This document shows positions 2,439 through 18,066 of a stretch of DNA of 64,000 bases, one piece after another. The translations under genes and the position numbers were made by a program. This stretch comes from Escherichia phage teqhal. The stretch is taken from sequence record MN895435.1. One strand, 5' to 3'. The first letter of the stretch is position 1. Each line of letters starts with the position of its first letter. The notes beneath the pieces were generated by a model. The model was given only the letters and a program-made list of their open reading frames with translations. It was not told where the DNA came from and searched no databases.

Positions 2439-3641
2439 ATGAAAGTATGTATTTTTATGGCTCGAGGTCTTGAAGGTTGTGGTGTAACTAAATTTTCTCT
2501 TGAGCAACGTGATTGGTTTATTAAGAATGGTCATGAAGTAACTTTGGTTTATGCTAAAGATAAATCATTTACTCGTAATTGCGCGCATGATTATAAATCA
2601 TTTTCAATTCCGGTTTTATTGGCAAAAGAATATGATAAAACACTTAAGCTGGTAAATGATTGTGATATTCTAATTATCAATTCAGTTCCTGCTACTTCGG
2701 TTGAAGAAGACACTATTAATAACTATAAAAAAATTATTGATAACATTAAACCTTCTGTTCGTGTTGTAGTTTATCAACATGACCATTCTTCTCTTTCTTT
2801 GCGTCGAAATTTGGGATTAGAAGAAACTGTTCGTCGAGCTGATGTTATTTTTAGTCATTCTGATAATGGTGATTTTAATAAAGTTCTGATGAAAGAATGG
2901 TATCCAGAAACTGTTTCTCTGTTTGATGATATTGAAGAAGCACCGACCGTATACAACTTTCAGCCTCCTATGGATATTGCGAAGGTTCGATCAACATACT
3001 GGAAAGATGTTTCTGAAATTAACATGAATGTTAACCGTTGGATTGGTCGTACGACTACATGGAAAGGTTTTTATCAGATGTTTGATTTTCACGAAAAACA
3101 TCTTAAACCTGCAGGACTAAGTACTATTATGGAAGGTCTGGAACGTTCTCCAGCGTTCATTCCTATTAAAGAAAAAGGAATTCCATACGAGTATTATCGT
3201 CTTCATCAAGTAGACCAAATTAAAATTGCTCCTAATTTGCCAACGCAAATTCTTGATCGTTATGTAAATAGCGAAATGCTTGAACGCATGAGTAAATCCG
3301 GTTTTGGTTATCAGTTGAGTAAGTTGGATAAAAAATATCTACAACGTTCTTTAGAATATACTCATCTCGAGCTTGGTGCATGTGGAACAATTCCGGTATT
3401 TTGGAAATCTACTGGCGAAAATTTAAAATTCCGTGTTGATAATAATCCTTTGACCTCGCATGATAGCGGTATCATTTGGTTTGATGAAAATGATATGGAA
3501 TCAACATTCGAGCGTATTAAAGAACTGTCATCTGACCGAGCTCTTTATGACCGTGAGCGAGAAAAAGCATATGAATTTTTGTATCAGCATCAAGATTCAA
3601 GCTTCTGCTTTAAAGAACAGTTTGACATTATTACAAAATAA
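2439..3641 (+). CDS. a-gt: HMC alpha-glucosyltransferase
   Basis: 400 aa, MKVCIFMARGLEGCGVTKFSLEQRDWFIKNGHEVTLVYAKDK matches remembered T4 alpha-gt. Confidence 0.85.
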   Translation: MKVCIFMARGLEGCGVTKFSLEQRDWFIKNGHEVTLVYAKDKSFTRNCAHDYKSFSIPVLLAKEYDKTLKLVNDCDILIINSVPATSVEEDTINNYKKIIDNIKPSVRVVVYQHDHSSLSLRRNLGLEETVRRADVIFSHSDNGDFNKVLMKEWYPETVSLFDDIEEAPTVYNFQPPMDIAKVRSTYWKDVSEINMNVNRWIGRTTTWKGFYQMFDFHEKHLKPAGLSTIMEGLERSPAFIPIKEKGIPYEYYRLHQVDQIKIAPNLPTQILDRYVNSEMLERMSKSGFGYQLSKLDKKYLQRSLEYTHLELGACGTIPVFWKSTGENLKFRVDNNPLTSHDSGIIWFDENDMESTFERIKELSSDRALYDREREKAYEFLYQHQDSSFCFKEQFDIITK

Positions 3642-5280: not shown

Positions 5281-6969
5281 GTGAAGAATTTTAAACTAAA
5301 CCGAGTTAGGTATCAAAATATAATGTCAGTAGGTGGAAATCCTATTGACATTCAATTAGATAAGGTTCAAAAAACTCTTATTACTGGACGAAATGGCGGT
5401 GGTAAGTCTACTATGTTAGAAGCCATCACATTTGGGCTTTTTGGCAAGCCATTTCGTGATGTAAAGAAAGGCCAATTAATAAACAGCACAAATAAGAAAG
5501 AACTTTTAGTTGAACTGTGGATGGAATATGATGAGAAAAAGTACTATATCAAAAGAGGACAAAAACCGAACGTTTTTGAAATCACCGTTAACGGTACACG
5601 TCTTAATGAATCTGCCAGCAGTAAAGATTTCCAAGCAGAATTTGAACAGCTTATCGGAATGTCATATGCCAGTTTCAAGCAGATTGTTGTCCTTGGTACA
5701 GCAGGGTATACCCCTTTCATGGGTTTGTCGACCCCTGCGCGAAGAAAGCTTGTGGAAGACCTGCTTGAGGTAGGAACATTAGCTGAAATGGATAAGCTTA
5801 ATAAAGCACTAATACGTGAATTAAATTCACAAAACCAAGTGCTTGACGTTAAAAAAGATAGTATTATCCAACAAATTAAAATATATAATGATAACGTTGA
5901 ACGCCAGAAAAAATTAACGGGTGACAACCTTACTCGTCTGCAAAATATGTATGATGATTTGGCAAAAGAAGCTAGAACGCTAAAATCGGAAATAGAAGAA
6001 GCTAACGAAAGATTAGTTAATATTGTTTTAGATGAAGACCCGACTGATGCATTTAATAAAATCGGTCAAGAAGCAGTTTTAATTAAATCAAAAATTGACT
6101 CGTATAATAAAGTCATTAATATGTATCACGAAGGTGGATTATGTCCAACCTGTTTGTCACAATTGAGTTCCGGTGATAAAGTTGTTTCTAAAATTAAAGA
6201 TAAAGTTTCTGAATGTACGCATTCGTTTGAACAGCTTTCAACACATCGTGATAATTTAAAAGTTCTTGTTGATGAATACCGAGATAATATTAAAACCCAA
6301 CAATCGTTGGCAAATGATATTCGCAATAAAAAGCAATCTCTAATCACGACGGTAGATAAAGCTAAAAAAGTTAAAGCGGCTATAGAAAAAGCATCTTCTG
6401 AGTTTATTGACCATGCTGATGAAATAGCACTGCTTCAAGAAGAACTTGATAAAATTGTTAAGACAAAAACTAATTTAGTAATGGAAAAATACCACCGAGG
6501 AATTTTGACTGATATGCTCAAAGATTCTGGTATTAAAGGTGCTATTATTAAAAAGTACATTCCATTATTTAATAAGCAGATTAACCATTATCTTAAAATA
6601 ATGGAAGCGGATTATGTGTTTACATTAGATGAAGAATTTAATGAGACAATTAAATCCCGTGGTCGCGAAGATTTTAGTTATGCTTCATTCAGTCAAGGTG
6701 AAAAAGCACGAATTGATATTGCTCTTTTATTTACTTGGCGTGATATTGCTGAAAAAGTTTCAGGTGTTAAAATAAGTTGTTTATTTCTTGATGAAGTGTA
6801 TGACGGTGCATTTGATGCTGAAGGTATTAAAAATGTAGCTAAAATTTTAGATGGTTTGAAGGATACCAACTTCTTCATAATTTCGCATAAAGACCATGAC
6901 CCACAAGAATATGGTCAGCATATTCAGATGGAAAAAGTTGGTAGATTTAGTTTAGCTAAGATTAGCTAG
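5281..6969 (+). CDS. 46: recombination/repair ATPase gp46 (Rad50-like)
   Basis: 562 aa, GTG start, Walker A GRNGGGKST, long coiled coil, CPTC zinc hook. Confidence 0.9.
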   Translation: MKNFKLNRVRYQNIMSVGGNPIDIQLDKVQKTLITGRNGGGKSTMLEAITFGLFGKPFRDVKKGQLINSTNKKELLVELWMEYDEKKYYIKRGQKPNVFEITVNGTRLNESASSKDFQAEFEQLIGMSYASFKQIVVLGTAGYTPFMGLSTPARRKLVEDLLEVGTLAEMDKLNKALIRELNSQNQVLDVKKDSIIQQIKIYNDNVERQKKLTGDNLTRLQNMYDDLAKEARTLKSEIEEANERLVNIVLDEDPTDAFNKIGQEAVLIKSKIDSYNKVINMYHEGGLCPTCLSQLSSGDKVVSKIKDKVSECTHSFEQLSTHRDNLKVLVDEYRDNIKTQQSLANDIRNKKQSLITTVDKAKKVKAAIEKASSEFIDHADEIALLQEELDKIVKTKTNLVMEKYHRGILTDMLKDSGIKGAIIKKYIPLFNKQINHYLKIMEADYVFTLDEEFNETIKSRGREDFSYASFSQGEKARIDIALLFTWRDIAEKVSGVKISCLFLDEVYDGAFDAEGIKNVAKILDGLKDTNFFIISHKDHDPQEYGQHIQMEKVGRFSLAKIS

Positions 6970-7678
6970 GTTTATATTTACAGTTATCATTATGCCACCT
7001 TGATAAATTTCCGAAAGTGGTAACTTTACCACAATGGACGCAAGTACCAGTCTTTTCAGTTTTCTTGCGTCCATTTGGATTTTTCTTGCAGAAATTTCTA
7101 TGTGCTGCGATAACGCATTTCTTGCCTATCATTCCGCAGAATTCGCAGGATGTTTCTTCAAGAATGATTGCTTTAAGCCCGTTTGAGATATTATTTCTGT
7201 GTTCTTTAGACATCGGTGGTCTAACTTTAGGATTAGGGTGATTCGGGCAGTTATCAAAATGCCATCGATTCATATTCCCGCTTAATCCAGACTTACCGCA
7301 ATGAGGACAAGTTAGTCTTGCTTTATTAGCTACTGCATCAGACATTTTCTTTCGTGTCTCCTGGGAGAATTCTTTATTCTTTTCTATTTCCCAGAGTTTA
7401 CGACGAATCCAACCGAAAGTTTTATTGTTGCGTTTAGCGTATTTCGTGGAAACTGTCATCATGTTAGCAGCATAGACTAATTTTGGTTCAGAAGGATAAA
7501 TTTTTACTAAAAGTTGATGAGCTACATAGTGCTCTTCTGGTGTTAAATCTACTAAGTTTGAAGCATCATCGCTGCCATTTAAACAGCGTGGTATAATGTG
7601 ATGAGATTCAGTATAGCAATCAAGTTTTCGAGATTTAGCATTAGAGATTAACTTTTCATAAATTAGTTTATAATTCAT
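6962..7678 (-). CDS. HNH homing endonuclease with three C-terminal zinc-finger repeats
   Basis: 238 aa; HNH core ESHHIIPRCLNGSDDASNLVDLTPEEHYVAHQ; three CxxCGK(x10-12)RWHxDNC-like repeats; antisense to flanking genes. Confidence 0.75.
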   Translation of the reverse strand: MNYKLIYEKLISNAKSRKLDCYTESHHIIPRCLNGSDDASNLVDLTPEEHYVAHQLLVKIYPSEPKLVYAANMMTVSTKYAKRNNKTFGWIRRKLWEIEKNKEFSQETRKKMSDAVANKARLTCPHCGKSGLSGNMNRWHFDNCPNHPNPKVRPPMSKEHRNNISNGLKAIILEETSCEFCGMIGKKCVIAAHRNFCKKNPNGRKKTEKTGTCVHCGKVTTFGNLSRWHNDNCKYKPS

Positions 7679-14156: not shown

Positions 14157-14187
14157 ACTATCAACTAATACGGATTTGGAGAATAAA

Positions 14188-14424
14188 ATGAAAATTGTTA
14201 TGGGATGCTTAGCAGTTTGTTTAGTTGCATTAGCAGCAGTTCCATTTGTTAGTGTTGAAAATGATACTCAACCTGTGATTGAATCTAGCACCGTTATTCA
14301 CACTAATGGTAAAATATCAGTTAAAATTGATGATAATCTTCATGTGAATACAAATGGATCTTTAGGTGTGCAAATGGGTAATACCTGCGTAAGCACTACT
14401 GGAGTAATTACTACTTGCATTTGA
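14188..14424 (+). CDS. small secreted protein (signal peptide)
   Basis: 78 aa from ATG 14188 (track ORF begins at upstream TTG); hydrophobic N-terminus MKIVMGCLAVCLVALAAVPF. Confidence 0.5.
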   Translation: MKIVMGCLAVCLVALAAVPFVSVENDTQPVIESSTVIHTNGKISVKIDDNLHVNTNGSLGVQMGNTCVSTTGVITTCI

Positions 14425-14822: not shown

Positions 14823-15074
14823 ATGGAAACTTTAGTAGCAGGTTCAATTTTTATGGTTTTAGTTTCAGGTGTGTTGGCTATTATTATATACATGCTTCCA
14901 TGGTTTATCGCCTTGATGCGTGGGTCAAAATCTACAGTAGGAATCTTTTTCACGTCTTTACTGTTTAACTGGTCAATTATTGGTTGGTTTATTACATTTA
15001 TTTGGTCAATTGCGGGTGAAACTAAAAAGTCTGCACAACCAAATCAGGTAATTATCATCAGAGAGAAGGAATGA
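14823..15074 (+). CDS. imm: superinfection immunity protein Imm
   Basis: 83 aa two-TM membrane protein at the T4 imm position between 43 and 42. Confidence 0.75.
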   Translation: METLVAGSIFMVLVSGVLAIIIYMLPWFIALMRGSKSTVGIFFTSLLFNWSIIGWFITFIWSIAGETKKSAQPNQVIIIREKE

Positions 15075-15220
15075 AAAGCAAAATTATAACAGTGTTGCTT
15101 TTAATCTTGATGGTTATAATAAGTATATACTATAGCGTAACAGTTCCTGCTATGATTCCAACTCTTATCATAGGGTGGGGTTTATTACTGTTACAAGTTA
15201 AATATGAATGTATCAATTGA
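15071..15220 (+). CDS. small membrane peptide (49 aa)
   Basis: ATGA overlap with imm stop; MKSKIITVLLLILMVIISIYY; not in ORF track (under 60 aa). Confidence 0.35.
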   Translation: MKSKIITVLLLILMVIISIYYSVTVPAMIPTLIIGWGLLLLQVKYECIN

Positions 15221-15227
15221 GGTTTAA

Positions 15228-15968
15228 ATGATTAGTGACTCTATGGCAGTTGAAGAAATCCGTCTTCATTTGGGGCTTGCATTAAAAGAAAAAGATTTCG
15301 TAGTTGATAAAACTGGCGTTAAAACTATTGAAATTATTGGCGCATCATTTGTAGCAGATGAACCGTTTATTTTTGGCGCTCTTAATGATGAATACATTCA
15401 GCGTGAACTTGAATGGTACAAGTCTCAAAGTCTGTTTGTTAAAGATATTCCGGGTGAAACACCAAAGATTTGGCAGCAGGTAGCATCTTCTAAAGGCGAA
15501 ATTAACTCGAATTATGGTTGGGCTATTTGGTCAGAAGATAACTATGCCCAGTATGATATGTGTTTAGCTGAACTTGGTCAAAATCCTGATTCTCGGCGTG
15601 GTATCATGATTTATACTCGTCCATCCATGCAATTTGACTACAATAAAGATGGTATGTCAGATTTCATGTGTACTAATACAGTACAGTACCTGATTCGTGA
15701 TAAGAAAGTCAATGCAGTAGTAAGCATGCGCTCAAATGACGTGGTCTTCGGATTCCGTAATGATTATGCATGGCAAAAATACGTATTAGATAAATTAGTA
15801 TCTGATTTGAATGCAGGCGATTCAACTCGTCAGTATAAAGCAGGTTCTATTATATGGAATGTTGGAAGTCTTCATGTATATTCTCGTCATTTTTACTTGG
15901 TTGATCATTGGTGGAATACTGGCGAAACTCATATTGTGAAAAAAGACTATAAAGGTGAGTGGAAATGA
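15228..15968 (+). CDS. 42: dCMP hydroxymethylase gp42
   Basis: 246 aa, thymidylate-synthase-like fold, T4 gp42 length. Confidence 0.9.
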   Translation: MISDSMAVEEIRLHLGLALKEKDFVVDKTGVKTIEIIGASFVADEPFIFGALNDEYIQRELEWYKSQSLFVKDIPGETPKIWQQVASSKGEINSNYGWAIWSEDNYAQYDMCLAELGQNPDSRRGIMIYTRPSMQFDYNKDGMSDFMCTNTVQYLIRDKKVNAVVSMRSNDVVFGFRNDYAWQKYVLDKLVSDLNAGDSTRQYKAGSIIWNVGSLHVYSRHFYLVDHWWNTGETHIVKKDYKGEWK

Positions 15969-16807
15969 TTCAATTCGTAATTCCAAGTTATCAACGCGTC
16001 GGGGCAGTTTCTGCCCTTGATATGTTTCCATCTGATTATGAACCGCATATTGTAGTACGTGAACACGAAGAAAAAGCTTATTATGATGCCTATGGGTCTA
16101 GAGCTAAAATTATAACTATTCCTGATGACGTAAATGGAATTGCCGGTACTCGTAAAGCAATTACTGATATGTATGCAGGTCAACGAATCTGGATGATTGA
16201 CGATGATACTACTATTCGTATGAGTTCAATGCGAAAAAGAGATGACCGTCGTTGTGTGGATAAAGTCAATCAATTGACTCATGAACAGTTCTATGAATTG
16301 ATTCAATACGTCGAAGATGCCATGGATTGCGGGTATTATCATGGTCATGCTCGCCTACCAATTTTTAAAATTACTTCATCTTGGGGTAATTATCGTGAAA
16401 ATTCATATGGATTCACGAATACATGGTATGACCTTGGAAAACTTACGACAGAACAAATTGGGTATGGAAAAATTGATTTGTGCGAAGATATGTATGCATT
16501 TCTCAATTTAATTAATCAAGGTTATCCGCATTTGGCCCTGTTCAAATATCTAGTTGTATCTGGAAAAGCACAAGCTCCTGGCGGGTGTAGTTCAATTCGT
16601 AGTAATTCTAAACATAATAGAGCGCTTGAGCAAATCAATAGAGAGTTTCCAGAGCAAGCTCGTTGGAAAACTTCTAATATTGAAAAACGAAAATCGTTGG
16701 GTGAAGAAGACGAGCCATTAAAGGTTCTTCGCATGTGTGTTTCGCGTAAAGAAAAATCAGAAGCATTTCATAAGTTTAATGCTATTCATCCGATAGCAGT
16801 TGATTAA
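15965..16807 (+). CDS. putative glycosyltransferase (GT-A-like, DxD) at the locus occupied by beta-gt in T4
   Basis: 280 aa from ATG 15965 (ATGA overlap with gene 42); WMIDDDTTIR DxD-type motif; not alignable to remembered T4 beta-gt (351 aa). Confidence 0.6.
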   Translation: MIQFVIPSYQRVGAVSALDMFPSDYEPHIVVREHEEKAYYDAYGSRAKIITIPDDVNGIAGTRKAITDMYAGQRIWMIDDDTTIRMSSMRKRDDRRCVDKVNQLTHEQFYELIQYVEDAMDCGYYHGHARLPIFKITSSWGNYRENSYGFTNTWYDLGKLTTEQIGYGKIDLCEDMYAFLNLINQGYPHLALFKYLVVSGKAQAPGGCSSIRSNSKHNRALEQINREFPEQARWKTSNIEKRKSLGEEDEPLKVLRMCVSRKEKSEAFHKFNAIHPIAVD

Positions 16808-16884
16808 TGCCTAAATTTATTGTGTTATAATTACTCTATCTTTAACCAGTGAGGAAAATATAATGATGCCTATGGAAAAAATGA

Positions 16885-18066
16885 ATGTCTATTGCAGATT
16901 TAAAATCCCGTTTGATTAAAGCTTCCACTTCTAAAATGACTGCTGAACTGACTACATCTAAATTCTTTAATGAAAAGGATGTAATCCGTACAAAAATCCC
17001 AATGCTTAATATTGCTATTTCTGGTGCGATTGATGGCGGCATGCAGTCTGGTTTAACTATTTTTGCAGGGCCTTCTAAACACTTTAAATCAAATATGTCT
17101 TTGACTATGGTTGCGGCGTATTTGAACAAATATCCTGATGCAGTTTGTCTATTCTATGATAGCGAATTTGGTATTACTCCAGCTTATTTGCGATCCATGG
17201 GAGTTGACCCGGAACGAGTAATTCATACGCCAATCCAGTCAGTTGAACAGTTGAAAATTGATATGGTGAACCAGCTTGAAGCTATTGAGCGCGGTGAAAA
17301 GGTTATTGTATTCATCGACTCAATTGGTAATATGGCTTCTAAGAAAGAAACGGAAGATGCCTTGAATGAAAAATCTGTGGCAGATATGACTCGTGCTAAA
17401 TCACTGAAGTCATTATTCCGTATTGTTACTCCTTACTTTAGCATTAAAAATATTCCATGTGTTGCGGTTAACCATACAATTGAAACAATTGAAATGTTTA
17501 GTAAAACCGTGATGACAGGTGGTACAGGCGTAATGTATTCGGCTGATACTGTATTCATTATCGGTAAGCGCCAGATTAAAGATGGTTCTGATCTTCAGGG
17601 GTATCAATTTGTTCTAAATGTAGAAAAATCTCGTACCGTTAAAGAAAAAAGTAAATTCTTTATTGATGTTAAATTTGACGGTGGCATCGATCCTTATTCT
17701 GGATTGTTAGATATGGCTCTTGAATTAGGATTTGTGGTAAAACCTAAAAATGGCTGGTATGCTCGTGAATTTCTTGATGAAGAAACCGGCGAGATGATTC
17801 GCGAAGAAAAATCTTGGCGTGCAAAAGATACCAATTGCACTACATTCTGGGGTCCTTTATTTAAGCATCAACCATTCCGAGATGCTATTAAACGTGCTTA
17901 TCAGTTAGGTGCTATTGATAGTAATGAAATTGTTGAAGCTGAAGTTGATGAATTGATTAACTCAAAGGTTGAAAAATTTAAATCTCCAGAAAGTAAAAGT
18001 AAATCAGCAGCTGATTTAGAAACTGACCTAGATCAGTTAAGTGATATGGAAGAATTTAATGAATAA
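16885..18066 (+). CDS. uvsX: recombinase UvsX (RecA/Rad51-like)
   Basis: 393 aa, DLKSRLIKASTSK N-terminus, Walker A GPSKHFKS. Confidence 0.9.
   Translation: MSIADLKSRLIKASTSKMTAELTTSKFFNEKDVIRTKIPMLNIAISGAIDGGMQSGLTIFAGPSKHFKSNMSLTMVAAYLNKYPDAVCLFYDSEFGITPAYLRSMGVDPERVIHTPIQSVEQLKIDMVNQLEAIERGEKVIVFIDSIGNMASKKETEDALNEKSVADMTRAKSLKSLFRIVTPYFSIKNIPCVAVNHTIETIEMFSKTVMTGGTGVMYSADTVFIIGKRQIKDGSDLQGYQFVLNVEKSRTVKEKSKFFIDVKFDGGIDPYSGLLDMALELGFVVKPKNGWYAREFLDEETGEMIREEKSWRAKDTNCTTFWGPLFKHQPFRDAIKRAYQLGAIDSNEIVEAEVDELINSKVEKFKSPESKSKSAADLETDLDQLSDMEEFNE

Follow-up and report, generated by a model that had tools for sequence, protein, structure and literature searches.

Within the 64,000-nucleotide stretch of Escherichia phage teqhal (MN895435.1) analysed here, hereafter the window, positions 15965..16807 of the plus strand carry the gene known as ba-gt, ggt or TAGT gene (beta-glucosyl-HMC-alpha-glucosyltransferase), which encodes 280 aa. 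The local gene order is 43, imm.1, imm, 42, ba-gt, uvsX, 40, 41. On the upstream side, gene 42 (15228..15968, +) encodes the dCMP hydroxymethylase that makes the hydroxymethylcytosine (hmC) precursor and matches PDB 1B49/1B5D with an E of 2e-164, while the downstream landmark uvsX (16885..18066, +) was recognized by Pfam T4_UVSX_C (E 5e-39) and RecA. Further away, the alpha-gt gene for the DNA alpha-glucosyltransferase (2439..3641, +) matches the T4 AGT structures PDB 1XV5/1Y6F over its full length (E 4e-257). Gene 42 and alpha-gt are both intact, and the enzymes making the acceptor for the ba-gt product are thus encoded by the same genome.

The ba-gt ORF in the window ORF list is uninterrupted from the ATG at 15965 to the end of the stop codon at 16807. 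That list, produced mechanically, places the start at a GTG at 15959, giving 282 aa, but every annotated homologue starts at the ATG. This ATG overlaps the TGA stop codon of gene 42 in an ATGA read directly from the sequence (15965..15968, +), and a GGTGAG lies a few bases 5' of it, at 15954-15959. Such an arrangement is typical of, and suggests, translational coupling at the gene 42/ba-gt junction. Between 14900 and 17100, promoter and terminator scans stayed close to the shuffled expectation, with 11 promoter-like sites for 9.9 expected and one terminator-like site for 0.8 expected. The latter, the sole terminator-like match of the scan and hence about as many as chance would give, is a GC-rich hairpin at 16001-16017 (+), GGGGCAG-TTT-CTGCCCT, with a T-rich tract behind it; it lies inside the 5' coding end of ba-gt and is kept in T2 and T6. 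The spacer separating ba-gt from uvsX measures 77 bp (16808-16884) and holds TGCCTAAA followed by TATAAT (about 16826-16831); judged by eye, the pair resembles the T4 middle-promoter arrangement of a MotA box and a -10 element and is a candidate of this kind.

Profile searches assign the ba-gt product to a single family. PHROG 842, "beta-glucosyl-HMC-alpha-glucosyltransferase", matches residues 1-275 with an E of 1.1e-88, and among Pfam families PF20691 (TET-associated glycosyltransferase, TAGT) alone matches at E <= 1; it reaches 39.1 bits against a gathering cut-off of 27.5 bits and is covered from position 2 to 205 of 205. In NCBIfam, no model matches the product. A megablast search with the 843 bases of the gene against 50,697 phage records returned 474 Tequatrovirus records carrying it at full length with 90-98.2% nucleotide identity, from phages of Escherichia, Shigella, Yersinia, Salmonella and Citrobacter, which shows that ba-gt is not a chance ORF. 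Many of these records name the product "beta-glucosyl-HMC-alpha-glucosyl-transferase". In every case the gene adjoins that for the dCMP hydroxymethylase. With a 9-kb query around ba-gt, the region proved collinear with Escherichia phage FL08 at 98.7%.

We predicted the structure of the product from an alignment of 11 sequences including homologues down to 31% identity. The resulting model (mean pLDDT 78, pTM 0.81) is of poor confidence in loops 132-149 and 202-206. It shows a GT-A fold with a DxD motif and does not show the two-domain arrangement of GT-B enzymes. The segment WMIDDDTTIR corresponds to residues 76-85, and its three aspartates D79-D80-D81 (codons at 16199..16207, +) are invariant in the alignment and directly follow the predicted beta-strand 74-78; in the model, this is the canonical position of the GT-A DxD metal/nucleotide-sugar motif. 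All invariant positions of the family, namely R11, DDD and 30 others, are kept in the window allele. Most structural neighbours of the model are GT-A glycosyltransferases. The cellular ones, including members of the GT2 family (TarP 6H1J, PcManGT 6YV7 and the catalytic domains of cellulose and hyaluronan synthases), share only 8-15% identity with it. They act on a glycan or a lipid, whereas the acceptor of the window enzyme would, by analogy, be a sugar on duplex DNA, and their transmembrane or polymerase modules are absent from it. Since no ba-gt homologue has a solved structure, the catalytic details given below rest on fold analogy.

The resemblance of ba-gt to T4 beta-gt lies in its position immediately downstream of gene 42. 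T4 beta-gt and the T2/T6-type enzyme both depend on UDP-glucose, modify DNA hmC and form a beta linkage. They differ in their acceptor, which is bare hmC for the former and alpha-glucosyl-hmC for the latter, and T4 beta-gt (PF09198) has a GT-B fold whereas the window enzyme is of the GT-A type. Compared by BLASTP with the 351-aa T4 beta-gt taken from NC_000866, the ba-gt product gave a best E of 0.28 over 10 residues. We therefore rejected its identification as a divergent beta-gt. In T4, segA, a GIY-YIG homing endonuclease gene, lies between b-gt and uvsX; it is absent from this place in the window. [quoted passage not shown] The alpha-gt + TAGT pair is instead the commonest Tequatrovirus arrangement, and T4 is the unusual one (PMC13216743, PMC13390438).

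A preliminary description made from the sequence alone had proposed that the 280-aa ORF between gene 42 and uvsX encodes, at the T4 beta-gt locus, a different glycosyltransferase of the GT-A type, citing the WMIDDDTTIR signature, the lack of similarity to T4 beta-gt and an intact alpha-gt at 2439..3641. The ORF list, the matches identifying both flanking genes and alpha-gt, the predicted fold with its invariant DDD and the BLASTP result bear this out on every count; neither strong homology to T4 beta-gt nor the lack of a glycosyltransferase fold, either of which would have spoken against the proposal, was found.

An ORF of the same size lies between gene 42 and uvsX in T2 (AP018813, MH751506, LC348380) and T6 (AP018814, MH550421). 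Direct comparison with the T2/T6 beta-alpha-glucosyltransferase, a check envisaged in the preliminary description, revealed near-identity over the 280 aa (~99%, AP018813 and AP018814), together with the same locus, the DDD motif and the co-occurrence of alpha-gt. The window protein shows four differences in 280 aa from T2, three substitutions from each T6 record in addition to the lesion specific to that record, and one or two differences from its closest relatives at the same locus (e.g. ECML-363, FL08). It thus departs from the T2/T6 enzymes by polymorphisms only. At residue 23 it has S instead of T, a variant shared with another contig (L011), and the protein of one IMG/VR contig is distinguished from it by S23T alone; at residue 106, the window and T6 have H and T2 has R. 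The glycosylation pattern had been foreseen as "T2/T6-like or new", and the first term of this alternative is the one upheld by the identity, the shared locus and alpha-gt. The second is not supported, nor is the novelty it implied, as the protein is nearly the same as the T2/T6 enzyme and is so named in many records. In the window, ba-gt is an already known gene at its usual place.

The T2 and T6 records themselves carry changes that are absent from the window allele. R11H is present in all three T2 records (L004:4283-5125, L012:3286-4128 and L013:3295-4137, all on the minus strand), while residue 11 of the window protein (nt 15995-15997) is Arg; P251S of T2 is also missing from the window. 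In T6 MH550421 (L005:3138-3980, -), codon 10 has changed from CAG to TAG, an amber codon, and the CDS is annotated from Met20 with 261 aa. In T6 AP018814 (L003:4135-4974, -), an in-frame deletion of 3 nt takes out one Asp of the invariant DDD. Neither R11H nor the T6 lesions occur in the window allele or in six close relatives from GenBank and IMG/VR (ECML-363, FL08, L007-L011). That the two T6 records carry different lesions suggests a stock-specific loss or weakening of ba-gt in laboratory T6, and suggests as well that propagation in the laboratory does not require the gene.

The chemistry is established for enzymes ~99% identical to the ba-gt product of the window. By adding a glucosyl group, the TAGT of T2/T6 (PF20691) turns hmC that already bears an alpha-linked glucose into the gentiobiosyl base (PMC13216743, NAR 2026, citing Lehman & Pratt 1960, Kornberg et al. 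1961 and Kuno & Lehman 1962). As modelled with AlphaFold3, the T6 enzyme has a GT-A fold and is sister to GT2, and in most phages encoding glycosyltransferases TAGT occurs together with alpha-GT or beta-GT (PMC13216743); the TAGT gene is syntenic with T4 beta-gt (PMC13216743; PMC13390438). In natural Tequatrovirus isolates with alpha-GT and TAGT, HPLC/MS detected 5-hmdC, alpha-glucosyl-mdC and alpha-gentiobiosyl-mdC and did not find beta-glucosyl-mdC (PMC13390438, AEM 2026). Genetic evidence comes from T6: the DNA of the delta-ba-gt phage is stated to contain alpha-glucosylated hmC only, presumably at about 75% of cytosines, and after the deletion Brig1 can degrade this DNA and the sensitivity of the phage to Brig1 is increased (PMC11078745, Nature 2024). 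Likewise, the BapA glucosidase frees glucose from T6 delta-g-gt DNA and not from T6 DNA (bioRxiv 10.64898/2026.02.25.707755).

For the window phage, sequence identity, the fold, the conserved motif and the accompanying gene 42 and alpha-gt lead us to infer the same chemistry and the activity of its own ba-gt allele. In the pathway we propose, gp42 would make hm-dCMP, and hmC would enter the DNA during replication. The alpha-GT would then add an alpha-linked glucose to hmC in DNA. The ba-gt product, which has a GT-A fold and is probably an inverting transferase dependent on metal, would use UDP-glucose through its DDD motif and attach a further glucose to the first one through a beta-1,6 linkage, yielding gentiobiosyl-hmC. 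We consider it nearly certain that 15965..16807 encodes the T2/T6-type enzyme and that the phage DNA would contain hmC, alpha-glucosyl-hmC and gentiobiosyl-hmC, without beta-glucosyl-hmC.

Since ba-gt stands exactly where T4 has beta-gt, its product might instead replace T4 beta-GT functionally and beta-glucosylate bare hmC, so that alpha- and beta-monoglucosyl-hmC would occur side by side, as in T4. About 25-33% of hmC is unglucosylated in relatives, so substrate would exist, and structural neighbours that are mostly GT-A glycosyltransferases are compatible with the formation of a beta linkage. Such a replacement is nevertheless very improbable in view of the HPLC/MS profiles of alpha-GT + TAGT phages, which lack beta-glucosyl-mdC (PMC13390438), and of the deletion of the ~99% identical T6 gene, after which the DNA behaves as alpha-glucosyl-hmC (PMC11078745; bioRxiv 10.64898/2026.02.25.707755).

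A variant enzyme with altered donor or acceptor specificity would glycosylate hmC in a new pattern. The partner of TAGT homologues is alpha-GT in some cases and beta-GT in others, and some homologues have neither (PMC13216743); for this reason specificities may differ in the wider family, where homologues at 47-65% identity exist. The window allele, however, departs from those of T2, T6 and other phages at S23, H106 and a few more polymorphic positions, and it keeps every invariant one; we give hardly any credence to a changed specificity, and rejected a new glycosylation pattern on the grounds of only one to four polymorphic differences from T2, T6 and the other sequenced alleles. Equally slight is the chance that ba-gt is inactive, as a decaying or dispensable gene, with DNA containing alpha-glucosyl-hmC and hmC only. 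Laboratory stocks do carry lesions (the amber codon 10 of MH550421, the DDD loss of AP018814 and R11H of T2), but the window allele has none of them and combines a full-length ORF and a coupled start with R11, DDD and the 30 other invariant residues. We accordingly rejected the idea of a pseudogene, the ORF being intact and each of these residues kept.

How much of the DNA would be diglucosylated is a separate matter. Gentiobiosyl-hmC accounts for about 5% in T2 but about 72% in T6; in natural isolates the gentiobiosyl fraction is about 40% or about 67% (PMC13390438; bioRxiv 10.64898/2026.02.25.707755). As the T2 and T6 enzymes are ~99% identical and yet differ this widely, the level cannot be read from sequence. 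R11 lies in the N-terminal IPSYxR segment, beside the first beta-strand, and is invariant in the 11 homologues down to 31% identity. The R11H substitution of the T2 enzyme may possibly account for the low diglucosylation classically known for T2 compared with T6, although we regard this explanation as doubtful. If it is true, R11 alleles such as that of the window would give a heavy, T6-like diglucosylation.

The second glucose affects the range of host defences to which the phage is exposed. Gentiobiosyl-hmC escapes degradation by the Brig1 DNA glycosylase (PMC11078745) and is not stripped by the BapA glucosidase (bioRxiv 10.64898/2026.02.25.707755), and type IV enzymes of the GmrSD type still target it (PMC13216743). 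That the window phage has alpha-gt and ba-gt without beta-gt is thus helpful to know when annotating it and predicting its host range; it brings nothing new to biology, as this gene pair is the common Tequatrovirus arrangement.

Three further ORFs of the window deserve mention. An 82-aa ORF at 14176-14424 (+), located between genes 43 and imm.1, has annotated equivalents in T2, ECML-363 and FL08, and a hydrophobic ORF of 49 aa at 15071-15220 (+), between imm and gene 42, is annotated in FL08; neither has a Pfam match or a counterpart in the T4 annotation. Directly after gene 46 and on the opposite strand, a 238-aa ORF (6962-7678, -) gave a weak, sub-threshold match to HNH endonucleases (E 0.007). 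FL08 has an annotated "homing endonuclease" at the equivalent place, where T4 has no gene, and the ORF probably represents a homing endonuclease gene inserted as a mobile element.
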